A DNA stretch of 64,000 nucleotides from a virus, in the IMG/VR virus record IMGVR_UViG_3300032323_000739, positions 25,020 through 89,019 of that record, one strand, 5' to 3'. The position numbers were made by a program, and so were the translations under genes. The number at the start of each line of letters is the position of its first letter. Positions within the stretch are counted from its first letter, which is position 1. A model generated the notes under the pieces. It saw nothing but the letters and a program-made list of their open reading frames with translations. It was not told the origin of the DNA and searched no databases. Below, piece after piece: positions 6,572 through 53,567 of the stretch.

Positions 6572-6919
6572 ATGGATGAACGATTATCCAAAGCATTAGA
6601 ATTTGCCAATTATTCGGTGACGCTGGCCAATCAACGTCGAGCTCTAAAAGAAAAATATCTAGCAGATGTTATCCACTATCATAACGGAGGATGCTTTGCT
6701 ATTACAAAAGAATTAATTAATTTTGTCAAATTACAAATCGATACAGGTAATGACACTGGTGTTGTTCTCATTGACGACAACGATATTCCAGTAGAAATTG
6801 CCAATATGGACGAATTTTTTGATACGATTCTTAACAAATATTTTACAGCCAGTAATGAATATTATACTGAGTATCAAAAACTGCGTAAAAATCGCACAGT
6901 GGAAGGTTTAACACAATGA
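6572..6919 (+). CDS. Hypothetical protein, first gene of the enzyme cluster
   Basis: 115 aa; SD AGGAG; ATGA overlap with the next gene. Confidence 0.7.
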   Translation: MDERLSKALEFANYSVTLANQRRALKEKYLADVIHYHNGGCFAITKELINFVKLQIDTGNDTGVVLIDDNDIPVEIANMDEFFDTILNKYFTASNEYYTEYQKLRKNRTVEGLTQ

Positions 6920-7797
6920 CCCGTGGCTGTTTAATCTATGCCTTTAACAACGAAGAAATAGATTATATCACTATTGCTCGAGAAGCCGCACGTCGAGTTA
7001 AACTTTACTTAGAGGTGCCCGTTTGCTTGATTACAGATTCTGTGGAACAAGCACAAAAGGTAGATCCCGACAACAAATATTTTGATACAATTATTGATGT
7101 TTGGAAAGACACCCAACTAAAACCTACAGCAGAATTATTAAACACTAGAAATGTTCGTCAATATTCAGACGGCAGTGTTACACAAAAGAAAGCCAATTTT
7201 AAAAATAGTCTCCGAACAAAAACTTATGAATTAACACCTTATGATGAAACATTAGTAATAGACAGTGATTACTTTTTAGCCAATGGTTTGTTAAAAAATT
7301 GTTGGGATCAAGAGAAAGATTTTTTAATTTATAAAGAAGGGTATGACATATCTGGATATAGAATCCACCCGGAGTTTGATCGTGTTAGCGACTATACAGT
7401 AGATTTTTATTGGGCTACAGCGTTCTGGTTTAGAAAATCATCAATGACTAAAACTTTTTTTAATCTAGTAGATCACATCCGTGACAACTGGGATTACTAT
7501 AAGTTAGTTTATCAATTTGCCAGTCATATGTACCGTAATGATCACGCCTTTAGTATTGCAATTCATATTATGAACGGTTATACAGGCTTGCCTTGGGAAG
7601 GAAAAATGCCAGGTCGTATGCTTTATACACTAGACAAAGATGTACTAGTAGATATGGATGATCGAGGATTTAGAGTATTATTAGAAAAACAAAACAGACA
7701 TGGTGAGTATACTTTAACAAAAACTCAGGATGTTAGTATACATCTTATGAATAAGTTTAGCATACACAGAGTTCTCAAGGAGATTGCTGATGTCTAA
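6916..7797 (+). CDS. GT-A fold glycosyltransferase-like protein
   Basis: TPYDETLVIDSDY (DxD motif); RNDHAFSIA; paralog of the next gene. Confidence 0.65.
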   Translation: MTRGCLIYAFNNEEIDYITIAREAARRVKLYLEVPVCLITDSVEQAQKVDPDNKYFDTIIDVWKDTQLKPTAELLNTRNVRQYSDGSVTQKKANFKNSLRTKTYELTPYDETLVIDSDYFLANGLLKNCWDQEKDFLIYKEGYDISGYRIHPEFDRVSDYTVDFYWATAFWFRKSSMTKTFFNLVDHIRDNWDYYKLVYQFASHMYRNDHAFSIAIHIMNGYTGLPWEGKMPGRMLYTLDKDVLVDMDDRGFRVLLEKQNRHGEYTLTKTQDVSIHLMNKFSIHRVLKEIADV

Positions 7798-8638
7798 AGG
7801 TTTTATTGTATTAGCACAAAATACAGACACAATAGACTATGTTCGACAGGCTTATGCTCTTGCGTTAAGCATTAAACATAGTCAGCAGACAATAAACAAT
7901 ATATCTATCATTACTAATGATATTATACCCGAACAATATAAATTTGTGTTTGATCAAATTATTAAAATCCCATGGGGTGATTCTAGCGCCAACAGTAGAT
8001 TTAAAGTAGAAAATCGTTGGAAAATATATCATGCTAGTCCATATGATCAGACCATTGTGCTTGATACTGATATGTTAGTGTTGGATGATATTTCTAGTTA
8101 CTGGTCTACCTTTGAAAATTATGAAGTTTATTATACAAGTAAAGTCTTAGATTATCGAAACAAAATTATTTCCAGTAATTATTATAGAAAAGCGTTTACT
8201 GCTAATAACCTACCAAATTTTTACTCTGGGTTACACTATTTTAAAAAATCTGAGTTTGCCAAAGAATTCTATAGTTGGGTAGAGTTAATTACAAACAACT
8301 GGGAATTATTTTATGGCAAATATGTCAGCGAACATTATCCAGAAAGGCCCAGTATGGATATTAGTGCGGCCTTAGCAGGAAAAATTATGCAAGTGACAGA
8401 AAAGATTACTAATTCTAAATACGACCCTGTAACCTTTACACACATGAAAAGTCGAATACAAGGTTGGGCTGACCCAGGGGATAGTTGGATGAATAGTGTT
8501 GCTGTATATTTTGATCACGAGTGCCAGTTAAAAATTGGTAATTTTCAACAGCAGGGAGTGTTCCATTACACTGAAAAAGAGTTTCTTACTGATGTAATAA
8601 TTAACAAATTGGAGTCAGCATGCCTGGCAATGAATTAA
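7790..8638 (+). CDS. GT-A fold glycosyltransferase-like protein
   Basis: SPYDQTIVLDTDML (DxD motif); start taken at MSKG after SD AAGGAG. Confidence 0.65.
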   Translation: MSKGFIVLAQNTDTIDYVRQAYALALSIKHSQQTINNISIITNDIIPEQYKFVFDQIIKIPWGDSSANSRFKVENRWKIYHASPYDQTIVLDTDMLVLDDISSYWSTFENYEVYYTSKVLDYRNKIISSNYYRKAFTANNLPNFYSGLHYFKKSEFAKEFYSWVELITNNWELFYGKYVSEHYPERPSMDISAALAGKIMQVTEKITNSKYDPVTFTHMKSRIQGWADPGDSWMNSVAVYFDHECQLKIGNFQQQGVFHYTEKEFLTDVIINKLESACLAMN

Positions 8639-9231
8639 CTCAAGAAGAATTAGATGCTATACTAGCACAGTCGGCATGGAAACCAGCAGACCCGCTAGTG
8701 TATTTTAATCCGGATACCGGAGAACTTCGTATGATTACTGGAGAGCAACAGGGCGATGATCCGTATTTTATACGTGTTAATCCTGCTGAGATTGACGATC
8801 TTGTAAAAAACAAAACATCCCCTGCAGACTATCGTGTAGTTATGGATTTTAAAACTAATGAATATATTCTACAAAATATTTTAGATGGAGACATTCGTAG
8901 TTTTAATTGGAATGAAGAAGTATATCAACTACCTAAACACGGAGAGGGTAGTATTACATTAGTTCAAAATATTAAAGATAAAACTTGGACTCTTAAAATA
9001 ACAGACAACGTTAGAGACTCGCTGTCTAAACAGGCAGTACACGCTAAAAGCAGTCTTGCTTTTTACGCTACTAAGCGGGATGATGTTAACGTGTTATATG
9101 GGATATTAAAGTTTAGGATGATAGATATTACTACTACAGGTGAATTTACTATAAAAGATAGTTCTGCAGAACAGGAATGCAGTGTATTTTGCCGTAGAGT
9201 ATTTGATAGTTATAGGCATGTAGAACAATGA
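8620..9231 (+). CDS. Hypothetical protein
   Basis: 203 aa ORF, overlapping both neighbours. Confidence 0.6.
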   Translation: MPGNELTQEELDAILAQSAWKPADPLVYFNPDTGELRMITGEQQGDDPYFIRVNPAEIDDLVKNKTSPADYRVVMDFKTNEYILQNILDGDIRSFNWNEEVYQLPKHGEGSITLVQNIKDKTWTLKITDNVRDSLSKQAVHAKSSLAFYATKRDDVNVLYGILKFRMIDITTTGEFTIKDSSAEQECSVFCRRVFDSYRHVEQ

Positions 9232-10124
9232 AAATAAGAATAGCAGAACAAGATATCATTTATCTCAGTTACGATGAACCCAATGCTGAGAAGAATTATG
9301 CAGATTTATTACACAAAGTACCTTGGGCTAAACGTGTACATGGAGTTAAAGGCAGCGATGCCGCACACAAAGCCTGTGCCGCATTAAGCGACACAGAATA
9401 TTTTGTCACAGTTGACGGTGACAATGTTATTGATTCTGAATTTATTAACGTAGAAATCGATTTAGATGAATTAGGGCTTGATGAAAGTTATGTATTCAGT
9501 TGGTGCGGTAAAGTTAACGTTAACGGATTAATGTATGGCAACGGCGGCCTTAAGTTATGGACTCGTAAATTTGTTAACAACATGCGTACACATGAAAATT
9601 CTGACCCTGCTGATACTAAAGGTCTAGTAGAATTTTGTTTTGATGACAAATATTATCAATTCAATACTAATTATTCTACTAGCGTTATTAATGGCAGTGC
9701 TTTCCAAGCCTTCCGTGCAGGATTTCGAGAAGGCGTAAAGATGAGTTTAAATCAAGGAGCCAAAGTTAGTAACATTAAAGACGTGTGGTGGCAAAATTAT
9801 CAACGTCTTTTAATCTGGTCTACGGTTGGCAGTGATGTGGAATATGGAGATTGGGCTATATATGGTGCTCGAGAAGGTTGCTACTTGACTAATTGTACAG
9901 ACTGGGACTATGCCAATGTTCGTGATTTTGAATACCTTACAGAACAGTGGAAAGAAAAATACAGTAAAATTACTGAGGAAATGTTACCATATGAAATTAC
10001 AGGACTTGGTGTAACACTAAAAGAAGAATTAGGTTTAGAAATAGCAGACCTAGATAAACATGGCAGTAAATTTTTTAGAACAGTATATCAAAATACTCCA
10101 AGAATAATTGGAAGAAAACTATGA
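9228..10124 (+). CDS. Glycosyltransferase-like protein (GT-A, DxD)
   Basis: SYDEPNAE...AKRVHGVKG..AAH...FVTVDGDN; paralog of 20699..21394. Confidence 0.55.
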   Translation: MKIRIAEQDIIYLSYDEPNAEKNYADLLHKVPWAKRVHGVKGSDAAHKACAALSDTEYFVTVDGDNVIDSEFINVEIDLDELGLDESYVFSWCGKVNVNGLMYGNGGLKLWTRKFVNNMRTHENSDPADTKGLVEFCFDDKYYQFNTNYSTSVINGSAFQAFRAGFREGVKMSLNQGAKVSNIKDVWWQNYQRLLIWSTVGSDVEYGDWAIYGAREGCYLTNCTDWDYANVRDFEYLTEQWKEKYSKITEEMLPYEITGLGVTLKEELGLEIADLDKHGSKFFRTVYQNTPRIIGRKL

Positions 10125-11536
10125 TCACTAGCAAGTTAGAATATTGGCCTAAGATTAAAGATCAACTAGATCAAGTAGGACCTGGATTTTGTTTGGCAAA
10201 ATGGAATCAAGTAACAATTCATCTAGCCACAGGTCATACACATAGTTGTCATCATCCTAACACACATAAGATTCCTCTGCAAGAAATTGCCGCGGACCCT
10301 AGTGCATTACATAATACTCTATTCAAGAAACAACAACGCCAACGTATGTTAGACGGTGAACGTCCAGAAGAATGTAGTTATTGCTGGAATGTTGAGGATA
10401 ATGTTAAAGAAGCACATATATTCAGTGACCGTGTACAAAAAAGTGCAGAATCTTGGAGTCAGAATTTTGAAGAAGTGCTGGCTGCTGGCGCAGAAAATTT
10501 TAATCCTACCTATGTTGAAGTTAGTTTTAGTAATGTTTGCAATTTTAAATGTTCGTATTGTTCACCAGAAGTATCTAGCAAATGGATGGAGGAGATAGAA
10601 CAATATGGGGCTTATCCAACTAGCAACAAATTTAATAATATCGAATGGTTAAAAAGCATTGACAAAATGCCTATACCTAACAAAGACTATAATCCTTATG
10701 TTAATGCGTTTTGGCACTGGTGGCCCGAGTTATATAAGACTCTAAAAGTGTTCCGTATTACTGGCGGCGAACCTTTATTAAGCAAAGATACGTTTAAAGT
10801 TTTAGATCATATCATAGAAAACCCTCGTCCTGAACTTGAACTAATGATTAACAGTAATCTCTGCATACCGGATGAATTGTTTAATAAGTTTGTAGAAAAG
10901 ATGAAACGTATTCAAGGCGAAGGCATGATCAAAGACTTTACCTTGTTTACTAGTTGCGAAGCACACGGCGAGCGAGCAGAATATATTCGCAACGGTTTAA
11001 ATTATAACAAATGGTTAGATAATTGTTATACGTACTTGGACAAAGTACCAAATGGTCGTTTAGGTATAATGAGCACCTATAATATTTTAAGTGTTACAAG
11101 TTACATGCCATTTATGAAAGACTTGTTAACACTAAACAAAACCTTTAATCATTATAAGGATAGAGTACATCCATTAATTTTTGATATTCCATACTTACGT
11201 TATCCAGAACATCTTAGTATGACTATCCTTACACCTGATTATCTTAAACAAGTCGAAGAACAAGTAACGTTTATGTATCAGAACCGTCAAACAGCAGATT
11301 GGCAACCTCTTGCTGGCAACGGTTTTTATGATTGGGAATGTAAAAAGTTAGAACGTGTTTATCATTTGCTAGAAAGCACTTTCAAAGTTGGCGAGCATCT
11401 ACAACCAAGCACTGTAAATAAACGCAAAGATTTTGTACGTTTTGTTGACGAGCATGACCGTCGTCGTGGTACAAATTTCTTACAAACCTTTCCAGAAATG
11501 GAAGAGTTCTACAACCTATGCAAGTCTTTAACATGA
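10121..11536 (+). CDS. Radical SAM protein with N-terminal Cys-rich twitch-like domain
   Basis: CNFKCSYC; ITGGEP; N-terminal FCLAKW...HSCHH...CSYC. Confidence 0.9.
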   Translation: MITSKLEYWPKIKDQLDQVGPGFCLAKWNQVTIHLATGHTHSCHHPNTHKIPLQEIAADPSALHNTLFKKQQRQRMLDGERPEECSYCWNVEDNVKEAHIFSDRVQKSAESWSQNFEEVLAAGAENFNPTYVEVSFSNVCNFKCSYCSPEVSSKWMEEIEQYGAYPTSNKFNNIEWLKSIDKMPIPNKDYNPYVNAFWHWWPELYKTLKVFRITGGEPLLSKDTFKVLDHIIENPRPELELMINSNLCIPDELFNKFVEKMKRIQGEGMIKDFTLFTSCEAHGERAEYIRNGLNYNKWLDNCYTYLDKVPNGRLGIMSTYNILSVTSYMPFMKDLLTLNKTFNHYKDRVHPLIFDIPYLRYPEHLSMTILTPDYLKQVEEQVTFMYQNRQTADWQPLAGNGFYDWECKKLERVYHLLESTFKVGEHLQPSTVNKRKDFVRFVDEHDRRRGTNFLQTFPEMEEFYNLCKSLT

Positions 11537-11964
11537 AATATATTAGTCATAGAGGAAATTTAAAAGGTCCTGAACCTGAATTAGAAAATGAGCCAGGGTA
11601 CATTCAGGACGCTTTAGATGCTGGATTTGATGTAGAAGTTGATGTTTGGTATGTAGATGAAAAATTTATGCTAGGGCATGACGCACCTATATATGATGTA
11701 ACCAAAAACTTTTTATTAGATAGTAGACTTTGGTGTCATGCTAAAACTCCCGAAGCATTAACAGCCATGTTAACAGCCGGAATTCATTGCTTTTGGCATG
11801 AAAATGATGAAAGAACTTTAACTAGTCAGGGATTTATATGGACATATCCACACAAAAAATTAGTTGATCGTTCAGTAGTTGTAATTTTAGACAAGGAATT
11901 AAATCATGAGTATGTCTCACGAGCAGTTGCAGTCTGCGGTGACTACGTTCAATCCTGGCGCTAA
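11533..11964 (+). CDS. Short PLC-like/GDPD-family phosphodiesterase
   Basis: ISHRGN...EN...GFDVEVDVW...LGHD...WCHAK. Confidence 0.7.
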   Translation: MKYISHRGNLKGPEPELENEPGYIQDALDAGFDVEVDVWYVDEKFMLGHDAPIYDVTKNFLLDSRLWCHAKTPEALTAMLTAGIHCFWHENDERTLTSQGFIWTYPHKKLVDRSVVVILDKELNHEYVSRAVAVCGDYVQSWR

Positions 11965-12715
11965 TAAAATTGCTATCTGTTTTAGTGGACAAATTCGCAC
12001 ATGGCGTCGATGCATAGACACATGGATTCATCTTTTAGAACATAATGGTTCTAGAGATAACATAGATGTTTTTTGTCATTTTTGGGATTTTAATACGGTA
12101 CCAAACTCTGTGCCAGATCATCCTAAAGTATCTGCCAAGGTGGATACTGAAGAAATAAAAGAACTAATAGACATTTTAAAACCTAAAAAATATATAATTG
12201 ATTTTGCGCGAGAGTTCCCACTGTTTGATAAAAATCAAGCAATTACACACGGACCGTTTGTTAGTCAATTTTACGGAATCATGAAAGCGGCAAATTTAAA
12301 ACGTCAGTATGAGATTGAAAATCGCATGATGTATAAAGGTGTAGTACGTGCAAGGTATGACGCATACTATACTCACAATGTAACTGAGTTTTATAAAAAT
12401 ATTGCTCCTAATACTATGCACGGGTTTCATATGGGATGGAATCCTGATAACTTTAGAGGGCGTATGGGAGATATTTTTTGGATTGCAGACAGTGACACTT
12501 ATGATCTTATAGCAGACTACTATATCAATCTAGGCTACATGAATAAGAAATGGTTCACTGCTGATCAAACAGATGCCACTCCGGAATGGGTATTTTTTCA
12601 TTACATTAAAAAGAATAATATCGATATACAAAATAATCATTGGGATATTAAACTAATGAGAGAAAACGCAGAACTTAGTTTTGCCAAGAAGGAGGGCGGC
12701 TTTGAAGTCTGGTAA
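11906..12715 (+). CDS. Putative glycan-modifying protein (glycosyltransferase-like)
   Basis: KIAICFSGQIRT...DVFCHFW...VVRARYD, a pattern typical of polysaccharide loci; paralog of the next gene. Confidence 0.5.
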   Translation: MSMSHEQLQSAVTTFNPGANKIAICFSGQIRTWRRCIDTWIHLLEHNGSRDNIDVFCHFWDFNTVPNSVPDHPKVSAKVDTEEIKELIDILKPKKYIIDFAREFPLFDKNQAITHGPFVSQFYGIMKAANLKRQYEIENRMMYKGVVRARYDAYYTHNVTEFYKNIAPNTMHGFHMGWNPDNFRGRMGDIFWIADSDTYDLIADYYINLGYMNKKWFTADQTDATPEWVFFHYIKKNNIDIQNNHWDIKLMRENAELSFAKKEGGFEVW

Positions 12716-13436
12716 GATTGCTATCTGTATTAGCGGAATGCTACGAACAGGAATTCAAGCGTATCCTGTGTTTCGTAATTTTTTTGATTCTCTTGGCGAG
12801 TATGATATTTTTTATCATACCTGGAAGTTAGACTCATCAATATCTAATTTGTTAAAAACAACTTACAAACCTACAAGATTTTTAGAAGAAGATCCGCTTA
12901 ATAATACTAAAGAAAGTTCGTTTGGTAGTATGTTATACAGTATAATGATGGCCAATGAACTTAAAAAACAATATGAGATTGAAAATAATTTCAGATATGA
13001 TCTTGTAATTAAAACAAGGTTTGATCTTGTTTTTCCTAAGACTATTAAATTTCCTGTTGATGAAAATATATGGCCTAGAACAATTTATAGTGTAAACGGA
13101 AATTGTGGTATAAATCATACTGATTATGAAAATCACGGTATTAGTGATGTAATATTTTGGGGAGATAGCCAAAGTATGGACCTGGCAACTAATATTTACA
13201 GGCATTATAAGTACACTACCTTAGTTAAAGACATGTATTTGAGGGACGGCTGGAAAATGGATGTAAAAGATTACTATCTAAGTCCAGGTACTATGATTTA
13301 TCAACGCACAGTTAAACAAAATATAGCACATGTTAGATTGCCGTCTATTGGAGAAGTTCCGTGGAGGGACGATGTTGCTGAGTTAGATCCAGTTAAAGAT
13401 TACGATAAAATAAGAGAGAGATATGCAAAAGGTTAA
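12702..13436 (+). CDS. Putative glycan-modifying protein (glycosyltransferase-like)
   Basis: KIAICISGMLRT...DIFYHTW...YDLVIKTRFD; TTG start at 12702 chosen from the GGAGG SD. Confidence 0.5.
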   Translation: MKSGKIAICISGMLRTGIQAYPVFRNFFDSLGEYDIFYHTWKLDSSISNLLKTTYKPTRFLEEDPLNNTKESSFGSMLYSIMMANELKKQYEIENNFRYDLVIKTRFDLVFPKTIKFPVDENIWPRTIYSVNGNCGINHTDYENHGISDVIFWGDSQSMDLATNIYRHYKYTTLVKDMYLRDGWKMDVKDYYLSPGTMIYQRTVKQNIAHVRLPSIGEVPWRDDVAELDPVKDYDKIRERYAKG

Positions 13437-14241
13437 GACATTATTAGTAGATGGCGATAGTTGGACATACGGCAGTGAAATACGCGATCCCAAGTTGCCA
13501 GAAGAAGTAAAAGATTGGGACCCACCGAATGATGAATATCGATTACCGCGTATTTGGCCAACAAAGTTGGGAGAAATGTTAGGTGCTGACGAAGTGTTTA
13601 ACATCAGTTATCCTGCATCTAGCAATGATGGAATAGTGCGAAGAACAGTAGGATGGATTACTCAAGAATATCTAAGCAAAGGTCGCGATACTAGCGATCT
13701 ATTTGTAGTCATAGGATTTACTAGTCCAGAACGAAAAGATTTTTATTATCGTGACATTGACGACAAATATAAACACTTTTGGTACACACTTTGGCCAATG
13801 TGGAAACATCGTTATCCACAAGAGGAATTAAACAGATTTGCCGACATTTATGCTTCTTATATGTGGAACCCTGAAGAGTATACACATAGATATCTAAATC
13901 AAGTATTCTATTTGCAAACATTGTTTAATCATTACGGCATAAAACATTTATTTTTCCAAGCCTTTTATCAGCGTAATGATATGCATATACGTCAGTGGAC
14001 AGATGATCCATATAACAAACACTACAACGGACAACCAGATCAAATGGTTTGGGACATGATTGATCCTACACGATTTATGCATAAGGATGACAAGATTCAT
14101 AGTTTTCATAACTATATTTTAGATAAAGATACCAGCGAAGGAAAACGAAATAGTATTCTTAACATGCATCCTAGTGAATTAGGACATACATGGTGGGCCG
14201 AACACATTTATGAATACGGCAAAGGAAAAAAATTATGGTAA
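13423..14241 (+). CDS. SGNH/GDSL-family hydrolase or acyltransferase
   Basis: VDGDSWTYG, SSN, C-terminal HPSELGH. Confidence 0.7.
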   Translation: MQKVKTLLVDGDSWTYGSEIRDPKLPEEVKDWDPPNDEYRLPRIWPTKLGEMLGADEVFNISYPASSNDGIVRRTVGWITQEYLSKGRDTSDLFVVIGFTSPERKDFYYRDIDDKYKHFWYTLWPMWKHRYPQEELNRFADIYASYMWNPEEYTHRYLNQVFYLQTLFNHYGIKHLFFQAFYQRNDMHIRQWTDDPYNKHYNGQPDQMVWDMIDPTRFMHKDDKIHSFHNYILDKDTSEGKRNSILNMHPSELGHTWWAEHIYEYGKGKKLW

Positions 14242-15008
14242 AAGAAATTGTAGTTTGCGGGGATAGTTTTGGCTGCGGTTCGGGCATCCCCTTAGAATCT
14301 TGTTTTGAAGCATCTTTTGGTGGACAAGTCGCAGATCATTTTAATGTTCCTTTGAATGTGTATGCTAGATCGGGGTGTTGTAATTATGTGATATATCTGC
14401 AAGTTAAACAAGTAATTGAGGATTATCGTGCTAAAGAAAAACCATTTGTGTTAATATCAACAACTAATCACAGTCGATTTACATTTCCTGTTGATACAAC
14501 TTTAGGATATGTTAACTATACATTGGCTGATGTTGACTACGATAGTTATACTCCTTATTCTGAACATACAGGCCCAGGTCGTAGACCCAAGCCTATAGAA
14601 AATTTTAATAAACCTAAATTAATTAGTGAAACTGTTAGTAACATTTTATATTTTTTAGAACAAAATCCTGGAAATTTAGCACCGTTGTTTTACAGTATTA
14701 AAAGAAAAATAAAAACTGTTGAGCTTTATTTTAGAGATTTGTACGATGACGAAATTAAACAAGTTAATGATACTGGTTTAATATTATTAATGCACAACGA
14801 ATTAAAAGAGGCCGGAATTCCGCATTTAATAATGACACCTAGTGAACACAGAGATCGTTTTATAGATAAAGAAAATTTCTTTTATAATAATTGGGGATAC
14901 TATAGTCAAAAATATCCAGACTTGTACGGTAGCGGACATTGCACTGAAGTCGGTCACATGGAAGTAGCCAAAAAAATAATTAAACGAATAGAAGGAACGA
15001 GTTTGTGA
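14235..15008 (+). CDS. SGNH/GDSL-family protein
   Basis: CGDSFG, GCCN, GHCTEVGH. Confidence 0.65.
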   Translation: MVKEIVVCGDSFGCGSGIPLESCFEASFGGQVADHFNVPLNVYARSGCCNYVIYLQVKQVIEDYRAKEKPFVLISTTNHSRFTFPVDTTLGYVNYTLADVDYDSYTPYSEHTGPGRRPKPIENFNKPKLISETVSNILYFLEQNPGNLAPLFYSIKRKIKTVELYFRDLYDDEIKQVNDTGLILLMHNELKEAGIPHLIMTPSEHRDRFIDKENFFYNNWGYYSQKYPDLYGSGHCTEVGHMEVAKKIIKRIEGTSL

Positions 15009-16745: not shown

Positions 16746-16760
16746 AAAATACTTTACAAT
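16732..16760 (+). promoter_or_regulatory. sigma70-type promoter for the RLP-kinase-cyclase-SDR unit
   Basis: TTGACA (16732-16737), 17 nt spacer, TACAAT (16755-16760); AAGGA SD; ATG at 16777. Confidence 0.75.
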
Positions 16761-45894: not shown

Positions 45895-46388
45895 TATATG
45901 TCGGAAACTTTGCTAGTTGGATTGACCCTAGCATAATTGATAGAATATTAACAACTCCGGGCGAACGTCGACCTAAAACACAGGCAGGAGAGTATGAATT
46001 AGCCACTGCAAAAAAATGGCAGGCTTCTGGTATTGATATGTCTAAGATAGGTTGGGAATTTTACTACAATGAACATATAGGAAGAGATCATATCGATTTA
46101 CCAATGAATATTAATGGTAAAAAATACAAGTGGTGGTTTAGTAAACTCAATCCGGGCGACATGTTGCCCATGCACGTGGATCATTTTGAATCTGCAGAGA
46201 ATGTACAACGATACTGGATGGCTTGCCAGGATCATCAGCCAGGGCATGTGTTCGCATATGAAGGTCAATTTTTAGAAAATTACAAAGCAGGGGACATGTT
46301 TGAACTAGCACCTGCAAATGTAGAACACGGAGCAGCCAATCTAGGAACAGTTCCTAAAATTAGTTTACAAATTTTATTGTTTGATTAA
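45891..46388 (+). CDS. Small Fe/2OG-type oxygenase
   Basis: LPMHVD...HGAAN...KISLQI; paralog of 26547..27053. Confidence 0.65.
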   Translation: MIYVGNFASWIDPSIIDRILTTPGERRPKTQAGEYELATAKKWQASGIDMSKIGWEFYYNEHIGRDHIDLPMNINGKKYKWWFSKLNPGDMLPMHVDHFESAENVQRYWMACQDHQPGHVFAYEGQFLENYKAGDMFELAPANVEHGAANLGTVPKISLQILLFD

Positions 46389-47164
46389 TAGTTTTCTAGG
46401 TGTGCAACACCAATGCGTTCTCTAAATTCGTCGGTGAATGCGCCATCAATTCTTATACTATAACTTTGTACATCAGACCGCCCACCAGCATGCCAATCTA
46501 AATCGTTAAAAAACACTGCACGACAGTCTACAGATATACGGTTATCTGCTTCAGGATCGTATATATAAAACGGTTTATCAGCATTTGGACGCAAATGAAT
46601 AAATTCATGTCTATGCGGATAGTAGTCGTGTTCGCCTTCTAGTAAATCTCGATGTATGGGCATTAAGCAGTCGTGTTCTGCTTTAAAAATTATAATGCGA
46701 CCTATGGTTTTGAAAACTTTGTTCTGTATTGACTGCTCAATCCATTCTTTAACTTTAGGAAAATGATTTACGGCATCGGCAGTCCATTCCTTTTCTTCAA
46801 ATCTCGATTCCCAACCGCCCGCTTCTGTTTTAAGGAAAATAAATTGATAAGGGTCGTATGCACCCAACGCAAGTTTTAAAAACAACATAAACTTATCGCG
46901 ATTATTATATTCTCCTATTTCTATACCTAATCGTTTAATTTCGTGATCTGCAGGCAGTGCATGATATTCTTCTAATGCTTGATAAAGTGGCTTGAACTCC
47001 CAACGATATTGTTCAGCAGCCGCAGGCTTAACCATATTACCTTCTTTTTTGTAATCAGCCATAACAATACCCTTACAGATTTCGTAATGCAGTTTGGTAA
47101 ATCCTTCTATATCGATAAAAGAATCTAGGTTAATGTAAGGTTGAGAATTTATTCCGCGGATCAT
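46385..47164 (-). CDS. Fe/2OG-type oxygenase
   Basis: GRIIIF...PIHRD...FN..DWHAG...YSIRIDG. Confidence 0.6.
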   Translation of the reverse strand: MIRGINSQPYINLDSFIDIEGFTKLHYEICKGIVMADYKKEGNMVKPAAAEQYRWEFKPLYQALEEYHALPADHEIKRLGIEIGEYNNRDKFMLFLKLALGAYDPYQFIFLKTEAGGWESRFEEKEWTADAVNHFPKVKEWIEQSIQNKVFKTIGRIIIFKAEHDCLMPIHRDLLEGEHDYYPHRHEFIHLRPNADKPFYIYDPEADNRISVDCRAVFFNDLDWHAGGRSDVQSYSIRIDGAFTDEFRERIGVAHLENY

Positions 47165-47172
47165 AGGCTCAA

Positions 47173-47178
47173 TAAATA
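47173..47178 (+). promoter_or_regulatory. Putative late-promoter box TAAATA
   Basis: AATAAATA in the divergent gap 47165-47206. Confidence 0.4.
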
Positions 47179-47206
47179 TAGCATACTTTAATTTATCAAC
47201 AAAACA

Positions 47207-47902
47207 ATGACAGATATATCAAATTGGAACTTATATTGGAACTTAGAAGGAGACGAATTGGTACGAGCCAATTTAGTCTATAGTGCCTATGTTAGCCCTG
47301 ACAAAAAACACTTTTGTCAGTGGTTTGCTAGAGATATAAGATATCATCGAGACCCCGACGAAAACGCTCTCTGGACAACTGAATTGTTAAAAGACAGATT
47401 TGACAAAGAAATTGAATTTCATGCTAGGGCTCGTCGACATATGACCACCCTACCAATAGTTGATATTGACGAGCAAGAACTTAAAATCATTTATGAATGG
47501 CCAGGTGACGATTTTTTAATGCAAAGTATAAATGCAGGAAGTAGAGAAAAATTATTACCTGACTGGCAGGATCAAATGGCGTTGTTAATTCATAAAATGA
47601 AAAAATCACATATTACTAAATTAAGTTTACATCCAAATAGTTGGACTGTAATTAACAACGATACCTTAGTTCCTTTTAATTGGTTTTTTAGTTATGATTC
47701 TGAAAGAGACACAGATAGTTTTAAAAAGTTATCAATACAAATTAGTCCAGGAAGAATGGAAAAATTAGAACCAATATTTGAAAGATTAAACATAAAAGAG
47801 GATCAGTTTTATCCTGTTGAAACACTTCAACTAGCGGCTCTTGAAAGTTTTCGTGCAAATTATGATGATGCATTTATTAATAGGATTTTAACTTTATTAT
47901 GA
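47207..47902 (+). CDS. Degenerate kinase-fold-like protein
   Basis: FDKEIEF, IIYEW, KLSLHPNSW and FNWFF occupy the positions of kinase motifs, but the catalytic Asp residues are missing. Confidence 0.35.
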   Translation: MTDISNWNLYWNLEGDELVRANLVYSAYVSPDKKHFCQWFARDIRYHRDPDENALWTTELLKDRFDKEIEFHARARRHMTTLPIVDIDEQELKIIYEWPGDDFLMQSINAGSREKLLPDWQDQMALLIHKMKKSHITKLSLHPNSWTVINNDTLVPFNWFFSYDSERDTDSFKKLSIQISPGRMEKLEPIFERLNIKEDQFYPVETLQLAALESFRANYDDAFINRILTLL

Positions 47903-48591
47903 CTATTGCATATCTTCCTATTGAAATTGATGTTCAATTACCTGACGAACAAAAAATTATTAATTATGTAAAAAAATATCAATTGCCTACTATGACACAT
48001 TTAAATGGTCCTAGATTTGATCCGTGGATTGGCGCCCCAGTGATGGGTCGTGCAAAGACTGAAGACTGGTACAATCCAGATAAATTTAAAGAAGTATTTT
48101 GTAATAGATTAGTGCCAAACACGGCTCCGGTTGAATATGCTAATAATATAGATAAAGAATTTCCAGAATTAATCTATATGATTAATCAATTACCAATGAA
48201 AGAAATATCAGTAGTTATGATGTTAATGCAGACTACTCAAGTAACAGCACACACTGATAATCAACCCGACGATGTTATTTTAGATCCTGCTTGGGTTAGT
48301 AGAGATACTGAACCAAGAAGATATAATATACAGTTAACAAAACACGGAGTTTCGAGTTTCTTTGTATCCGAAACTAAAACTAGTGAAAAAATATATCCGT
48401 CGATAACAAAAGAAATGCCTTGTTTTTTAAGTTGTGAACAGCATCATTATCATGGCGCCGATTTTGTTGTTGAAGAAAAAATAATGATGTGTGTGTTAGG
48501 TATTGTTGACAAAGAAAGACACCTAAACAATATTAAAAAGAACTTGGAAAAACATCGTGAGCGAGCTATAATATTTCCGGACCCACAATGA
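47899..48591 (+). CDS. Fe/2OG-type oxygenase
   Basis: VTAHTD...EPRRYNI...HGAD...KI. Confidence 0.55.
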   Translation: MTIAYLPIEIDVQLPDEQKIINYVKKYQLPTMTHLNGPRFDPWIGAPVMGRAKTEDWYNPDKFKEVFCNRLVPNTAPVEYANNIDKEFPELIYMINQLPMKEISVVMMLMQTTQVTAHTDNQPDDVILDPAWVSRDTEPRRYNIQLTKHGVSSFFVSETKTSEKIYPSITKEMPCFLSCEQHHYHGADFVVEEKIMMCVLGIVDKERHLNNIKKNLEKHRERAIIFPDPQ

Positions 48592-49637
48592 CATTTTACA
48601 CAGGTAAATTTTTTGAAGTTCAAATAGAAAATAGCAGTATTTGTAACGCTGCCTGCCCTCAGTGTGTTAGAGAAATAACACCTGATGATAAAAGTTGGCT
48701 TCAAGAAACATATTTAGAAACTGACTTTTTTGATTTAATTCCTGACTATGTTTATCAAGAATCGAAAATAATTTTCTTTTGTGGTAACATAGGCGATCCG
48801 TGTGCGGCACCAAACTTTTTAGATGTGTGTAGATTAATTAGAAAAAAGAATCCAGACATAATAATAAAAATTAGCACCAACGGCGGCCTTCGTAGCCCCA
48901 AGTTTTGGAAAGAACTTGCAGAAATAGTAGGCGATCGTAGCGAAGTTATTTTTGCTATAGACGGGCTGGAAGATACTAATCACATATACCGAGTTAATGT
49001 GCGTTGGTCTAATGTTATATCTAATGTACAGGCCTTTGTAGAGGGCGGTGGAAAACCATACTGGCAGTATATAACTTTTAAACACAACCAGCATCAGGTA
49101 GAAGAAGCAAGGGCGTTATCTGAAAAATTAGGATTTCAAAAATTTATAGTTAAACCAAGTCATAGGTTTGCATTAGACGAAGTGCTAGGACGTTCTCGTT
49201 CGGTAGAACCGCCTAGTAATGAATCATTAACACATAAAGTAATTTTACATCGGACTCCTAAAACTCTTAAAGGTATAATGACCGACTCTAATAACAGTTA
49301 TATCGATTGTTATGTACTAAAGAATCAAAGTGTTTATATTGATCATCTAGGCCGAGTATTTCCTTGCTGTTTTTTAGCAGCCGGAGTATATGCTCGACGC
49401 GGCGCAGATATTCGAGACGGTTGGGAAAAGATTTGGAAAGAACACAAAGATAAAATTGATTTAAGAAAAACAGCGTGGCATTCTATAATAGAAGGTAATT
49501 TTTTTACTGATATTAAATCAACATGGGATAAAAACTATGATCATGGCCGCTTGTTTACATGTGCTACAACTTGTTCTTCGTTTGACGATAGGTTAAACGA
49601 TCCTAACGAATTTAATAAAATGATAGAAAATGTCTAA
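48588..49637 (+). CDS. Radical SAM protein with C-terminal SPASM/twitch-like Cys motifs
   Basis: CNAACPQC, CGNIGDP, TNGG, PCCF, CATTC; paralog of 35591..36676. Confidence 0.9.
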   Translation: MTFYTGKFFEVQIENSSICNAACPQCVREITPDDKSWLQETYLETDFFDLIPDYVYQESKIIFFCGNIGDPCAAPNFLDVCRLIRKKNPDIIIKISTNGGLRSPKFWKELAEIVGDRSEVIFAIDGLEDTNHIYRVNVRWSNVISNVQAFVEGGGKPYWQYITFKHNQHQVEEARALSEKLGFQKFIVKPSHRFALDEVLGRSRSVEPPSNESLTHKVILHRTPKTLKGIMTDSNNSYIDCYVLKNQSVYIDHLGRVFPCCFLAAGVYARRGADIRDGWEKIWKEHKDKIDLRKTAWHSIIEGNFFTDIKSTWDKNYDHGRLFTCATTCSSFDDRLNDPNEFNKMIENV

Positions 49638-50976
49638 TAACTTTGAAAATAACTACGAACCTTCTGCATACGATAATTTTATAGTCTATCAACGATTGAA
49701 ACCAAATCAGGAAGACATTATTACATTAGATGGTAAATCTTATCCCTTAACTAACGAATTTTATTTTAAAGGATACTACGATTGGCTTTTAAAAGATTCA
49801 ATGGTTGATCATGATCAAAAACCAATTATGTTTTATAACGGATACGGAAGAATACATCAATTGGAACATTATAAAATTGATGCTTCAACAGTAGAATTTT
49901 TAAATGAAACTGGACTAAATGTATATCTTAATGAAATTTTAATTTTTACTAAAGATAGAAATAAGTTTATACCTACTCCTAAGTTTAATGAGCCGATGCC
50001 ATCATATATGGAACGTGCCTATCATGACAATGAACAATTTTTTGATTCTTCTACAGTAGAAGAAATATTTTGTTATGAATTTGAATCTTTAGAGCTTTTT
50101 GCAAAAAATAACGGATTAACTAATATTAATGTTTTTACTTGTCATTATAATATACGGAATTTTTTTCAACACAAGTATCCTTCTATAAAATTGTTTTGTA
50201 GAAATAGTTTTATATCAGCAGTGGCAGAGTATTCTGGATCATTTAATATTCAAACTCAAATAACTGAAGACTTATCTCAACAAATTGAAAAAAAATTCTT
50301 TTGTGCTAACTGGAGATATGCACCCTATCGGCATATAGTTGCTGCCTATCTCTCTGAAAAATCTTCAGTTATGAGTTGGTTCTATAAAAATACTCCAGAA
50401 GTATTCTTAAAAAATACTTGGTTTAATATGGATCAATGGCCTGACCATTTAAAAACTTCTCTAATTAGTGGAGCAAACACATTAAGTGAGTTATCTCCTA
50501 TGATGTTAGATAAAAAAGTAAACGGCGCAGTATGGCTTGACGGAGAAAAAGATCATTTAAAATATCCTCAAGGAGTTAACAGTTCCCATATTGAAGATTA
50601 TTTAGAAAACTTTTATAAAAAAACCTTTTGTATGATGATTGGAGAAACTAGATATTCCATAACTAGTCCTACACTAAGCGAAAAAGTATTGATGCCACTT
50701 AATGGATTTAAACCTTTTATTCTTATTAGTGCTCCTAGATCGTTAGAATATTTACAAAATCTTGGATTTAAAACTTTTAATCGTTGGTGGGATGAAAGTT
50801 ATGATCTTATAGACGATCACGAAGAACGAATTAAACGTATATTAGAAGTAATAGATTATATTAATAATTTTACCATAGAAGAACTTCGTTTAATGTATAA
50901 AGAAATGCAGGATGTACTGAACCATAATTATAAAATGGTTCGTCAAATACGTCATGATCAGCCTGTATTAGTTTAA
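49630..50976 (+). CDS. Glycosyltransferase-like protein, paralog family X (3 of 4)
   Basis: FFCANWRY; FCMMIGET...SEKV...KPFI...GFKTF..WWDESYD. Confidence 0.5.
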   Translation: MSNNFENNYEPSAYDNFIVYQRLKPNQEDIITLDGKSYPLTNEFYFKGYYDWLLKDSMVDHDQKPIMFYNGYGRIHQLEHYKIDASTVEFLNETGLNVYLNEILIFTKDRNKFIPTPKFNEPMPSYMERAYHDNEQFFDSSTVEEIFCYEFESLELFAKNNGLTNINVFTCHYNIRNFFQHKYPSIKLFCRNSFISAVAEYSGSFNIQTQITEDLSQQIEKKFFCANWRYAPYRHIVAAYLSEKSSVMSWFYKNTPEVFLKNTWFNMDQWPDHLKTSLISGANTLSELSPMMLDKKVNGAVWLDGEKDHLKYPQGVNSSHIEDYLENFYKKTFCMMIGETRYSITSPTLSEKVLMPLNGFKPFILISAPRSLEYLQNLGFKTFNRWWDESYDLIDDHEERIKRILEVIDYINNFTIEELRLMYKEMQDVLNHNYKMVRQIRHDQPVLV

Positions 50977-51001
50977 TTAAAAACACAATATTTCAAATTG
51001 A

Positions 51002-51007
51002 TAAGTA
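51002..51007 (+). promoter_or_regulatory. Putative late-promoter box TAAGTA
   Basis: GATAAGTA in the intergenic gap before 51041. Confidence 0.4.
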
Positions 51008-51040
51008 TAAAAAAGAATTTTAAATTTTACAAAAGAGAAT

Positions 51041-52249
51041 ATGTCTAAATCTTTATGGTGCCCCTTTGCTTTTAGATCAATATCTGCTAAAACAGATGGA
51101 ACACTAACAACCTGCTGTAACGGGTTACCGGTTATTTCTCAAAAGACCGGAAAGCCTATGACTAAACAAACTCATACCTTACAAGAAGCATTTTACAGTG
51201 AGGAGTTTGATAGTATACGTAATAATTTATTAAACAATGTTCGAGACAGTAATTGTGTTCGTTGCTGGGAGATTGAGGACATGGGGGCCGAAAGTCCAAG
51301 ATTGTCAGAAATACGATGGTTTAACGATCAAGTAAAAAGCGGAAATGTTAGAGACTTAGAAGTACTTGATATTGGTCTAGGAAATCAATGTAATCTTAAA
51401 TGTAGAACGTGTGGACCAATTGACAGCAGTCATTGGGTTAGGGAGGCGTATGATTTAGATCTTCCTGATAACACTATTTCTTTTAAAGATTATCAGAAAA
51501 AAACAATCTTCTTAGAACCTACAGATTCTAAATTTTTTAAAAATCTTAAAGAAGATATATTGCCTAAAATTCACGAAGTTCACTTTTTTGGGGGTGAACC
51601 TATGATGATGAAAACAACTTGGGATATAATTCGCGAATGTGTAGATAAAAAATATGCAGAGCGTATGGAACTTAGTTTTAATACAAATTGTACATTTTGG
51701 GATTTAGAAAAAGTTAAACTATTTGATGATTTTAATAGAATAGGTATAGCATTAAGTATTGACGGTCTTGGAAAACGATTTGAATACATGCGGAATCCAG
51801 CCAAATGGGACAACGTCTACACTAATATATTAAAAATAGTAGAGTGGAAAAACCAACGTCCAGACAGTCGAGGATTAATTATGGCATATACTACTAGTGC
51901 GTACAATGTTTGGTATATTCCTGAAGCAATAGAATTTGCAGAAACACATGGCCTTGACTTTTATTTAAATCCAGTTTTTAATCCAAATTTATTTGCTCTT
52001 CAAAATATTCCTAGTGATATAAAAAAAATAATAAAAGAAAAATTGGACAGCAGTGTTCGACCAAACTCTCAAGCATACGATGAAGTTAAAAAACTTACAG
52101 AATATTTGGTTCCTTCAGAACCAAATGAGTTAAGTTGGGAAATGTTTTTAAAAGAAATAAAAATGCGTGACGAATATCGTAATGAAAGTTTTGCAGAAAC
52201 TTTTCCAGAGTATTATCAACTATTAGTAGATCATGGTCAAAGAATTTGA
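51041..52249 (+). CDS. Radical SAM protein with N-terminal twitch-like domain
   Basis: WCPFAF...TCC...CVRC; CNLKCRTC; FGGEP. Confidence 0.9.
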   Translation: MSKSLWCPFAFRSISAKTDGTLTTCCNGLPVISQKTGKPMTKQTHTLQEAFYSEEFDSIRNNLLNNVRDSNCVRCWEIEDMGAESPRLSEIRWFNDQVKSGNVRDLEVLDIGLGNQCNLKCRTCGPIDSSHWVREAYDLDLPDNTISFKDYQKKTIFLEPTDSKFFKNLKEDILPKIHEVHFFGGEPMMMKTTWDIIRECVDKKYAERMELSFNTNCTFWDLEKVKLFDDFNRIGIALSIDGLGKRFEYMRNPAKWDNVYTNILKIVEWKNQRPDSRGLIMAYTTSAYNVWYIPEAIEFAETHGLDFYLNPVFNPNLFALQNIPSDIKKIIKEKLDSSVRPNSQAYDEVKKLTEYLVPSEPNELSWEMFLKEIKMRDEYRNESFAETFPEYYQLLVDHGQRI

Positions 52250-53567
52250 AGAAGATCTTTATTTTTTCTGTGTGTTGTATGAAAATTTAAATCCAGATTC
52301 TATAGAATCTCGTCGACTAATTCTTGAAAACAGCAACGTTTTAAACTATAACGATACAAGATCAAGTTATACTTTTTTTGACTATTACAATGATCATTAT
52401 TGTAATTCTTTTTTAGAAAAATTAAAAATACCGCATCTAATTTATACTGGTTTAGGGTCTATTAAACAATTTGAAACTTTAAACTATGATACTGATACAA
52501 TTGAGCGATTAAATTCAATTGGCCTTCAAATATATCTGTATGAAACTTTAATTTTAGACACAGGTACAAAGAAAAAGTTTTATATGACAGAAAATAAAAC
52601 TTACCCAGGGAATTACATTAACTATCAGATTCAAGATGAATCTTATTATTCTTTTGAGTTAGAAAGTATTAACAATTTTGTTCTAAGAAATAATTTAAAA
52701 AATGTTACAGTTTTTACCTGCGAGGATAATACAAGTAACAAATTTAATAATTATAGTTTTAAAGTAGAGTCTAAAGAAATATTTTTTATTGGTTTGCTAA
52801 AAGAAAGCCAGAGTCGGACTAACGGTTATGAAATAGACTTAACTGTTTTACAAGAGTTTCAGCCAGATTCTATAACTCATAAATTTTGGTCTGGTGCTTG
52901 GAGATATGATACTCATAGACATTTTATTTCTTGCTTTTTAGCAAATAAATCTGCAAAAATCTCTTGGGCATATACTACACCTTTAGAAGAAACACAAAAA
53001 AAGTCTTGGTTTGATTTAAGTAAATGGAAACACACTGAACTAGATATTTTTAATAAATTAAAAACAGGCGATAGCCACTTAGTTAAAAATGCTCCAATAT
53101 GTTTAGATATTCCAATGGAAGCCACCTCGGTTGATTTTGATCAACTATGGACCACTCCGCATAGTGAGGAATTATTTTATCCAAACAGTAATCCTCTACC
53201 CTATAACGAATATTTGTCTTGTTTTTGTGCTGTAGTTACAGAAAGTAATTTTGCACATCCTTTTGCAACATTTACAGAAAAAACAATTAACGCTATTAAA
53301 GCCGGTCGTCCTTTTATTCTTGTTAGTAGTCCAGGCACGCTTGCCTATTTAAAAAAATATGGATTTAAAACCTTTGATGAATTCTGGGATGAAAGTTACG
53401 ATAAAGAAAATAACCACGAACAACGGTTAATAAAAATATTAAAATTAATTGACTACATTGATAGTTTTACTGTAGACGAACTTAAATCTGTCTACAGTAA
53501 AATGTTACCTATCTTAAAACATAACTTTAATTTGCTATTGGAAATTAAACAGCCATTTCTGCTTTAA
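52233..53567 (+). CDS. Glycosyltransferase-like protein, paralog family X (4 of 4)
   Basis: KFWSGAWRY; CFCAVVTES...TEKTINAI...RPFI...GFKTF..FWDESYD. Confidence 0.5.
   Translation: MVKEFEEDLYFFCVLYENLNPDSIESRRLILENSNVLNYNDTRSSYTFFDYYNDHYCNSFLEKLKIPHLIYTGLGSIKQFETLNYDTDTIERLNSIGLQIYLYETLILDTGTKKKFYMTENKTYPGNYINYQIQDESYYSFELESINNFVLRNNLKNVTVFTCEDNTSNKFNNYSFKVESKEIFFIGLLKESQSRTNGYEIDLTVLQEFQPDSITHKFWSGAWRYDTHRHFISCFLANKSAKISWAYTTPLEETQKKSWFDLSKWKHTELDIFNKLKTGDSHLVKNAPICLDIPMEATSVDFDQLWTTPHSEELFYPNSNPLPYNEYLSCFCAVVTESNFAHPFATFTEKTINAIKAGRPFILVSSPGTLAYLKKYGFKTFDEFWDESYDKENNHEQRLIKILKLIDYIDSFTVDELKSVYSKMLPILKHNFNLLLEIKQPFLL

Follow-up and report, generated by a model that had tools for sequence, protein, structure and literature searches.

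Introduction

Large glycan islands beside the tail fibres are already known in marine T4-like phages, where their chemistry is unexplored. The host recognition cluster (HRC) of pelagimyophages and cyanomyophages is described in excerpts of its source (Zaragoza-Solas et al, 2020; PMC7029224) as hypervariable, with a mean length of 44.6 kb in pelagimyophages, and phage biosynthetic gene clusters are, in excerpts of a second source (10.1101/2020.10.01.322628), found mainly in temperate phages. Here we analyse an island of genes at positions 6572-53567 of a 64-kb stretch of viral DNA (the window), which comprises bases 25020-89019 of the 89,019-bp IMG/VR record IMGVR_UViG_3300032323_000739. The island shares with HRC-type clusters the position, the 35-45 kb size class, the combination of glycosyltransferases (GTs) and radical S-adenosylmethionine (SAM) enzymes and the variable content, but not the T4-like genome with its gp14 border. 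In our reading, for which the chances seem about even, it is an island for glycan tailoring, conserved in its lineage of Rak2/PA5oct-like jumbo phages from freshwater and assembled from separately moving cassettes. In the literature searched, no RuBisCO-like protein (RLP) was tied to nucleotide-sugar synthesis, no EEVS-type cyclase and no aminotransferase-amidinotransferase cassette was found in phages, and no such island was found in Rak2/PA5oct-like jumbo phages; nothing relevant emerged either on RLPs in phages or on RLPs together with a cytidylyltransferase or capsule.

Results

Conservation and mosaic structure of the island

The island contains 55 open reading frames (ORFs) of at least 80 amino acids and one of 75, and is about 99% coding. 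The original prediction, made from the letters of the sequence alone, had described some 55 packed genes between the tail fibres and thyA of a phage, and this holds, with baseplate genes, a giant protein and tail fibres lying upstream. Neighbouring genes mostly overlap, by 1-60 nt, and most other junctions are shorter than 70 nt. The sole sizeable gap, of 224 nt between g35 and g34, is filled exactly by the 75-amino-acid ORF (31358-31585, minus strand). At its start this ORF shares 4 nt with the end of g35, and its stop directly adjoins the beginning of g34; no family could be assigned to it.

The arrangement recurs in related phages. Relative G003 is collinear from the tail fibre to g55: of 51 coverable genes, 45 are present, with identities of 50-92%, and those missing are g25, g27, g31, g32, g34 and g35. 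In G001, an 85-kb relative that is 97% identical and rated 23% complete (related complete records are of 335-364 kb), a block of g28, g30, g33, g36 and g57-59 adjoins thyA and does not lie between g26 and g37. The distance from the full-length tail-fibre homologue to thyA is 42-44 kb in four distant relatives, compared with 48 kb here. The corresponding interval of G007 (335 kb, 95% complete) holds g05, g06, g07, g09 and g10, this head being matched in gene order at 26-44% identity, with four g48-type radical SAM genes, g24, a GT-B gene, an SGNH gene, two GT-B genes, g36-g33-g30, a further GT-B gene, two g23-type genes, another GT-B gene, AAA/VWA genes, DHFR and ThyA. The catalytic motifs of the island enzymes are kept in the orthologues, in line with the earlier expectation that there would be no widespread loss of catalytic residues. 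A chimeric assembly was considered and rejected, the same arrangement being present in G001, in G003, in a 166-kb contig with identical proteins and in an independent freshwater run.

Comparison of these loci shows that relatives of 335-364 kb share a skeleton made up of g05-g10, several SPASM-type radical SAM enzymes, four to five GT-B paralogues, g36-g33-g30 and g23-type genes. An island of 42-48 kb at this position, with this skeleton, is thus an old feature of the lineage, to which the RLP cassette, several oxygenases and the cyclitol module were added later. The radical SAM/oxygenase set g24, g26, g40-42 and g47-54 stands alone in two further contigs (G002 and L082), without RLP and cyclase. 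It had been expected that the genes would be inherited together in related phages and that the enzyme mix would resemble that of actinomycete aminocyclitol clusters. Co-inheritance is borne out for the skeleton (G003, G007), not for one indivisible cluster; the likeness to actinomycetes extends to the enzyme families (ValA-like and StrB1-like), not to a single cluster. As the cassettes occur separately, the aminoglycoside-like look arises from their combination and not from one conserved pathway.

In the mechanism that we propose, the RLP and a cupin would act on a keto-sugar phosphate, isomerising or enolising it, and their product would be activated by the pyrophosphorylase g17 as a nucleoside-diphosphate (NDP) sugar, while the GDPD-like protein and the GT-A enzymes would transfer the activated sugar or carry out a phosphodiester step. 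In one sub-lineage only, the cyclase would convert sedoheptulose-7-P to a C7 cyclitol, with the kinase and the short-chain dehydrogenase/reductase (SDR) phosphorylating and reducing it. The mini-aminotransferase and the amidinotransferases would add amino and guanidino groups, and the radical SAM enzymes, the iron/2-oxoglutarate (Fe/2OG) oxygenases and the SGNH enzymes would tailor the units. Finally, the GT-A and GT-B enzymes, all of them predicted to be soluble, would join the units onto an acceptor accessible from the cytoplasm, the GT-B paralogues building the chain. For this acceptor we tentatively and slightly favour proteins of the virion, either in the tail fibres or in the head decoration, which would still take only a minor part of the total probability; the preference is due to the position after the tail fibres, kept over deep divergence, and to the fully soluble pathway. 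The features of the island are listed in Table 1.

Table 1. Features of the island, with positions in the 64-kb window
Feature	Position	Strand	Basis or remark
Left boundary	6515..6571	+	sigma-70 consensus promoter inside hairpin, with T-run
g05-g10, conserved head: small protein; paralogues g06/g07; g08; g09; radical SAM g10	6572..11536	+	
g11 truncated GDPD-like; g12/g13 GT-A (predicted)	11518..13436	+	accessory half of RLP cassette
g14-g16 SGNH/DUF6071 hydrolase-like	13423..15691	+	GDS motif
g17 NDP-sugar pyrophosphorylase, g18 metallocupin, g19 RLP	15688..18009	+	core RLP cassette; Pfam and NCBIfam
g20 APH/fructosamine-type kinase, g21 EEVS-type cyclase (predicted), g22 SDR	18011..20699	+	Pfam
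g23, radical SAM g24, SGNH g25, methyltransferase-like g26, radical SAM g27	20690..24449	+	Pfam/motifs
g28 NDP-sugar epimerase/dehydratase, g29, g30 small double-stranded beta-helix oxygenase-like	24510..27053	+	Pfam for g28
g31, g32 GT-B (predicted)	27040..29651	-	family without annotation; paralogues g57, g59
g33 StrB1-like amidinotransferase	29648..30640	-	PDB 1BWD
g34 sulfotransferase-like, 75-amino-acid ORF, g35 kinase/nucleotidyltransferase fusion	30644..32418	-	absent from G001 and G003
g36 mini DegT aminotransferase, g37 GNAT-like, g38, g39 oxygenase	32415..35539	-	Pfam/motifs; g37 weak
g40 radical SAM (+), g41 oxygenase (-), g42, g43 (DUF6614), g44, g45 (+)	35591..40118	both	Pfam
g46 ATE_C-like; radical SAMs g47, g48 (-), g50, g51 (+); g49; g52	40104..46388	both	Pfam, hhalign
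g53-g55, radical SAMs g56 and g58, GT-B g57 and g59 (predicted)	46385..53567	both	right end of island; g53-g55 without family

The RuBisCO-like protein and its partners

The product of g19 matches Pfam RuBisCO_large with an E-value of 2.5e-43. On comparison with 2CWX, the KPK motif and the K-E-D-E residues are retained and the equivalents of N123, H294, K334 and E60 are replaced; the magnesium site (equivalents of K201, D203 and E204) is invariant in 20 viral homologues. On these residues g19 is a form IV RLP in which the carboxylation residues have been lost. It scores well below the NCBIfam cut-offs for the MtnW (159 against 409 bits) and OiaX (151 against 700 bits) equivalogs. Both MtnW, the DK-MTP-1-P enolase, and OiaX, the 3-oxo-isoapionate-4-P decarboxylase, are like g19 in fold, magnesium site, KPK motif and the loss of the carboxylation residues, but their pathways are without an NDP-sugar pyrophosphorylase, which is the constant partner of g19. 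That partner, g17, matches the profile of an uncharacterised NDP-sugar pyrophosphorylase (PDB 4EVW) with an E-value of 1e-33. The cupin g18 retains the metal ligands H43, H45 and E50, and g11 is GDPD-like by alignment, with a PDB profile match to 3I10 (E 6e-5).

Scanning IMG/VR with g19 returned 241 viral contigs, of which 80 were fetched for the neighbourhood counts. The g17-g18-g19-g11 set is present in 62-77 of the 80 loci, 39 have a GT-A of the g12/g13 type, and the remaining island genes are present in just 2-7. In other phages the neighbours of the cassette are GT11, GT25, WavE, methyltransferase, PhoH, ThyX and PolB genes, an environment that indicates T4-like phages of 170-200 kb as judged from these genes. 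The RLP matched none of 50,697 phage records in a tblastn search. In cells, the cassette is found in SAR11 (up to 64% identity), Patescibacteria, DPANN archaea, Planctomycetota, Verrucomicrobiota, Legionella, Azospirillum and others. On the complete chromosome of Ca. Pelagibacter sp. Uisw_094, an RLP/NTP-transferase/GDPD-like cassette lies at 6800-9200, beside the 23S rRNA gene (10494-13247), and is accompanied by GT9, a HAD-NTP-transferase fusion and a cytidylyltransferase; this edge of the rRNA operon is the site of SAR11 hypervariable region 2 (HVR2). In Legionella nautarum a LicD gene adjoins the cassette. In a tree of RLPs, the viral sequences form one clade, which takes in one SAR11 group and is itself part of a broader radiation of cellular sequences; this topology suggests exchange between phage and host. 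A 4.6-kb contig binned in a Methanobacteriota metagenome-assembled genome carries the full g17-g18-g19-g11 set, with an RLP that is 78% identical to g19 and falls inside the viral clade; this is probably a mis-binned phage contig.

The company that the RLP keeps bears on a second view of the island, in which its unusual NDP-sugars and peripheral GTs act on the lipid-linked intermediates of host lipopolysaccharide (LPS) or capsule on the inner side of the membrane, a host flippase and ligase complete the process, and the altered surface blocks superinfection during a long infection. Such remodelling of the host envelope would fit the cellular surface-glycan loci in SAR11 and Legionella, the LPS-type genes (GT11, GT25 and WavE) beside the cassette in other phages and the interpretation given to the pelagimyophage islands in the published excerpts (PMC7029224), and a sigma-70 type promoter would suit the host RNA polymerase, probably early in infection. 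However, the 55 island proteins include no phosphoglycosyl transferase that could initiate synthesis, no flippase, no polymerase and no transmembrane protein. Hydropathy analysis gave no convincing transmembrane segment in any of them, so that all are predicted to be soluble, and there was no Pfam match to a transporter, which agrees with the earlier remark that neither a transporter nor Wzx/Wzy is evident. Moreover, the jumbo-phage skeleton (the GT-B family, g09 and g33) is essentially virus-only in the searches run. We regard the envelope as a possible but doubtful target, and return to the soluble pathway on a virion acceptor as the reading that we prefer.

Glycosyltransferases and the nature of the acceptor

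The four proteins g31, g32, g57 and g59 are paralogues of 435 amino acids, with 490 homologues, none of which has a Pfam match. An AF2 model of the family (pLDDT 89, pTM 0.90) has only GT-B proteins as its top Foldseek matches. In structural comparison (VIA Z) the best scores include those to T4 BGT (10.6, with 272 residues aligned), the GT of phage HY126 (10.2) and T4 AGT (8.6), the T4 BGT score being tied with those of FucT, EXT and phage HY126 GT. For g12/g13 the model is of lower quality (pLDDT 74.6), and the top matches among the 268 found by Foldseek at E <= 1e-3 are all GT-A (GT6, GT31, GT8 and LH3; E 1e-5 to 1e-6, moderate TM-scores of 0.39-0.47); a profile and sequence search of the PDB found no match for this pair. 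On the models, the first four are predicted GT-B fold and g12/g13 predicted GT-A fold transferases.

About ten GT-like proteins had been proposed, of which these four GT-B and two GT-A proteins stand by fold, whereas g06/g07 and g09/g23 show no GT homology in profile searches, with no Pfam, PHROG or PDB-profile match. For g09, of which g23 is a paralogue, there are hints of a GT in a VDGDN motif, seen by eye, and in an atlas lead of 0.88 to GT2. The g09 protein (9228-10124, plus strand) has at least 7963 homologues, the best 120 at 74-100% identity and none with a Pfam domain, and its atlas neighbours are virus-only.

The resemblance to T4 enzymes raises the question of whether the GT-B enzymes might glycosylate the phage DNA, with the island supplying the donor, as for the poly-arabinosylated cytosine of RB69 and DLP3. 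Such hypermodification would be consistent with T4 BGT, the HY126 DNA GT and T4 AGT being among the best fold matches, with the presence of GT paralogues and NDP-sugar genes as in the described clusters (PMC13326640), with thyA and DHFR adjoining the island in all the relatives examined, and with the sigma-70 type promoter. The fold matches are nevertheless tied with GTs that do not act on DNA, the island is 4-6 times bigger than known DNA-modification clusters, and it has by Pfam no TET/JBP, C5-methyltransferase, DNA kinase or aGPT-Pplase domain. In glyco-hypermodifying phages the ThyA homologue is marked by N177D, for a dCMP substrate, by L143D/E or by D169N (PMC13326640). Here g60 reads MALPPCH ... 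RSCDMFLGVPFNIAS, with L143, C146, D169 and N177, and is above the NCBIfam ThyA cut-off; with these canonical residues, its candidacy as a 5-hydroxymethylcytosine or 5-hydroxymethyluracil synthase (hmC/hmU synthase), a dCMP hydroxymethylase or a 5hoC synthase was rejected. The ThyA of four relatives is likewise canonical; one of these relatives is a complete genome of 364 kb that encodes just one ThyA homologue. DNA as acceptor is therefore quite unlikely.

A complete genome of the same jumbo lineage, IMGVR_UViG_3300043418_000114 (G006; 364,247 bp, with direct terminal repeats), was queried only with the ThyA, RLP, cyclase and tail-fibre homologues.

Cyclitol and guanidino modules

For g21 the best PDB match is ValA (4P53, 262 bits), followed by DDGS (5TPR, 220 bits), with 146 bits for the best DHQS and 79 bits for DOIS, so that it is predicted to be an EEVS-type sedoheptulose-7-P cyclase; the NHRNG motif is kept in five of seven orthologues. 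The g20-g22 module is confined to about seven close contigs, in five of which, those that reach far enough, cyclase, aminotransferase, kinase and amidinotransferase occur together.

The amidinotransferase g33 matches StrB1, an inosamine-phosphate amidinotransferase (PDB 1BWD), over residues 4-327 with an E-value of 8e-58, and retains the catalytic motifs GGGFHC, HIDST and DAANV. Alignment of g44 with g33 by hhalign gives a probability of 98.5% over 294 columns, and the C-terminus of g44 matches amidinotransferases (E 1e-7) with the cysteine of GGWHC retained; g44 is accordingly a divergent paralogue of g33, and the two amidinotransferases first proposed are both upheld. The aminotransferase g36 has 210 amino acids and is a partial DegT protein in which the lysine is retained; the possibility that g36 and g37 are the halves of a split aminotransferase was rejected, as they are set apart in G001. 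Where two pyridoxal-phosphate enzymes had been counted, g36 alone is supported.

The series g36-g33-g30, with GT-B paralogues and g23-type genes on its flanks, is found in this order in 39 further viral contigs at 58-71% identity, mostly without cyclase or RLP; both G006 and G007 have this amidino cassette without either. The product of g35 (31582-32418, minus strand) is a P-loop kinase (APS-kinase/NadR-RNK-like) fused to a short HxGH nucleotidyltransferase (NMNAT-like, with WHAGH). The C-terminal half of this protein resembles NMN adenylyltransferases no less than it fits a PAPS-synthase reading, and by its domains the protein may serve NadR-like NAD salvage or sulfate activation. Among the relatives compared, g34 and g35 occur in this genome alone.

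A diffusible aminocyclitol-type metabolite, a guanidinylated C7 pseudo-sugar released at lysis or active inside the cell, would make use of the EEVS-type cyclase, the kinase, the SDR, the DegT protein, the two amidinotransferases with StrB1 as best match, the NDP-activation and the GT-B enzymes, but seems very unlikely given that the cyclase is restricted to those few contigs, with the amidinotransferase cassette and the GTs kept where it is missing, that the island has neither an exporter (no transmembrane protein) nor a self-resistance gene (no Pfam match), and that some ten transferases exceed the usual need of a small molecule. A guanidinylated C7 cyclitol and an RLP-derived rare sugar, polymerised by the virus-only GT-B enzymes into a pseudo-glycan on virion or DNA, would be an unlikely variant of the glycan reading that we prefer. 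If true, it would be the first virus-encoded aminocyclitol chemistry and would give RLPs a new catalytic role in nucleotide-sugar synthesis.

Radical SAM enzymes, oxygenases and other tailoring functions

Ten radical SAM proteins are identified by Pfam (g10, g24, g27, g40, g47, g48, g50, g51, g56 and g58), all with the CX3CX2C motif, and g10 has a SPASM-like N-terminal part. SPASM/twitch radical SAM enzymes that act on aminocyclitols and sugars have precedents in BtrN, DesII and AprD4. The ten radical SAM enzymes, RLP, NTP transferase, cyclase, epimerase and SDR of the original prediction all reappear with hidden Markov model scores above or near the cut-off, as do its four SGNH proteins, g14-g16 and g25 (DUF6071/GDSL, GDS motif), with Pfam matches for g14, g16 and g25. 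Of the seven Fe/2OG oxygenases, g39 and g41 are substantiated as Asp/Arg-hydroxylase-type enzymes (PF05118), the others being sub-threshold or recognised by motif only: the small oxygenase g30 has an E-value of 0.015 and the small double-stranded beta-helix protein g52 is similarly below threshold. The sulfotransferase, GNATs and methyltransferase fare likewise, with sub-threshold or motif-only support. Matches are under the cut-off for g34 as sulfotransferase (E 0.02), g37 as GNAT (E 0.02) and g46 as ATE_C-like/GNAT (E 5e-4), and g26 is methyltransferase-like by motifs only, which are kept in the orthologues.

In g29 (25423-26547, plus strand; 374 amino acids), H-Q-G is found at residues 115-117, where the HxD iron ligand would be expected. 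The H-Q-G is identical in all four orthologues and HIHGN is present in three of the four; TRVSMD is also kept. The protein has no Pfam or PDB match and is among the best-kept of the island (90-92%), and by motif it is a candidate oxygenase or halogenase.

No precursor of a ribosomally synthesised and post-translationally modified peptide was found, as there is no free intergenic space and the 75-amino-acid ORF is not precursor-like, short nested ORFs not having been exhaustively assessed. The last alternative, that the island has no single product and is a hypervariable dump of auxiliary genes, including a protein- or peptide-modifying set of radical SAM enzymes and Asp/Asn hydroxylases, could appeal to the independent occurrence of the cassettes, the relocated block in 97%-identical G001, the classical action of SPASM-type radical SAM enzymes and PF05118 hydroxylases on peptides and proteins and the possible NAD salvage by g35, but is highly improbable in view of a skeleton order kept over deep divergence, tightly overlapping junctions, catalytic motifs under conservation and the lack of an evident precursor-peptide gene.

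Borders, promoter and identity of the phage

The window opens with g01-g04, three paralogous tail-fibre-like genes and a fourth gene, and 5' of these are the baseplate genes and a giant structural protein of 4472 amino acids. On the right the island is bordered by the minus-strand genes for ThyA (g60) and DHFR. The baseplate wedge shares 35-39% identity with that of Atu_ph07/PA5oct-type jumbo phages and the AAA ATPase 51% with jumbo-phage homologues, the nearest phages by these two proteins being Atu_ph07, Phosso, SCTP-2, PA5oct and Yen9-04 (285-490 kb). With wedge and ATPase nearest to Rak2/PA5oct-like jumbo phages, a T4-like pelagimyophage was rejected. By megablast, neither end of the window matched any of the 50,697 phage records. 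The public runs that contain the stretch are freshwater metagenomes, and no RNA run is listed among them.

A sigma-70 consensus, TTGACA-17-TATAAT, is located at 6515-6543, 29 nt 5' of g05. There are only two 12/12 matches to this consensus in the window, both intergenic; the second and one 11/12 match, at 57559-57587 and 58754-58782 (minus strand), stand before g65 (VWA-like) and g66 (AAA ATPase). Their placement suggests that the phage relies on host sigma-70 for one class of genes, and the island is probably read by the host RNA polymerase and not simply as part of a late tail-fibre operon.

Many of the island proteins are unlike known families. About 30 ORFs have no Pfam match, a PHROGs search with 20 unassigned ORFs returned only families of 'unknown function', Pfam at E-values up to 5 gave only sub-threshold hints for unassigned ORFs, and a profile and sequence search of the PDB found no match for g38. 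A reduced hhalign comparison of the island proteins with each other revealed four remote links only.

Outside the island, g73 (61639-62499, minus strand; 286 amino acids) has an N-terminus (…AELFYSIQGEG…) that resembles, by eye, QueE-type 7-carboxy-7-deazaguanine synthases. If it is of the QueE type, the phage may make a deazaguanine base.

Discussion

The evidence from gene content and order is consistent with an island that builds and tailors a glycan, and for its acceptor we favour a virion protein over the host envelope and the envelope over DNA, with a free aminocyclitol least likely. Several observations weigh against this reading. The keto-sugar phosphate substrate of the RLP, the product and the acceptor are ones that we infer. 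For about 20 of the 56 proteins, searches of Pfam, PHROGs and the PDB gave neither a fold nor a family, and the matches of the GT-B proteins cannot separate DNA, protein, teichoic-acid and LPS transferases. The island's own sigma-70 promoter makes its adjacency to virion genes a weaker argument. Furthermore, from their separate distribution, the cassettes may have different purposes instead of a common product.

The coupling of the RLP to an NDP-sugar pyrophosphorylase, invariable in these loci and spread over at least 241 viral contigs, would point to an unassigned function of RLPs in surface-sugar synthesis, judged from sequence. EEVS-type cyclases and StrB1-like amidinotransferases, known from aminocyclitol antibiotics, occur here in lytic jumbo phages, and the virus-only GT-B family (490 members) and the g09 family (at least 7963) are abundant in freshwater phages and without annotation. 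Whichever the acceptor, be it virion, envelope or DNA, its modification would bear on host recognition, superinfection exclusion or defence evasion in freshwater populations.

The comparison with known systems gives partial likenesses. Like this island, the HRC, as far as the published excerpts (PMC7029224) describe it, follows a giant structural gene and tail fibres and contains GTs, LPS-type sugar genes, radical SAM cassettes and Asp/Asn hydroxylases. The HRC, however, is carried by T4-like phages of 150-200 kb and has the neck gene gp14 as its border, whereas the border here is thyA/DHFR in a jumbo phage. The word 'rubisco' was not found in that source, and its excerpts name no cyclitol synthase or amidinotransferase, terms that were not searched. 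The phage clusters for glyco-hypermodification of DNA (RB69, DLP3 and RL38JI; PMC13326640) likewise place soluble GTs beside NDP-sugar and ThyA-family genes, but hold 7-11 genes compared with the 56 here, and the ThyA of this phage is canonical.

Actinomycete clusters for streptidine and C7N-aminocyclitols (StrB1, StsC and ValA/AcbC) have in common with the island the families of cyclase, DegT/StsC, kinase, amidinotransferase, NDP-transferase and GT-B. The differences are that here cyclase and amidinotransferase do not form a conserved pair, that the aminotransferase is a miniature of 210 amino acids and that genes for export or resistance are absent. The kinase of actinomycete C7N-aminocyclitol pathways is of the ROK type, whereas that of the island is of the APH/fructosamine type. 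Giant viruses offer a further parallel, as the gene clusters for the Mimivirus fibril and chlorovirus capsid glycans make rare NDP-sugars and use soluble GTs to place them on virion proteins independently of the host. We know of no RLP, cyclitol synthase or amidinotransferase in the giant-virus clusters, which are found in viruses of eukaryotes and comprise 6-12 genes each.

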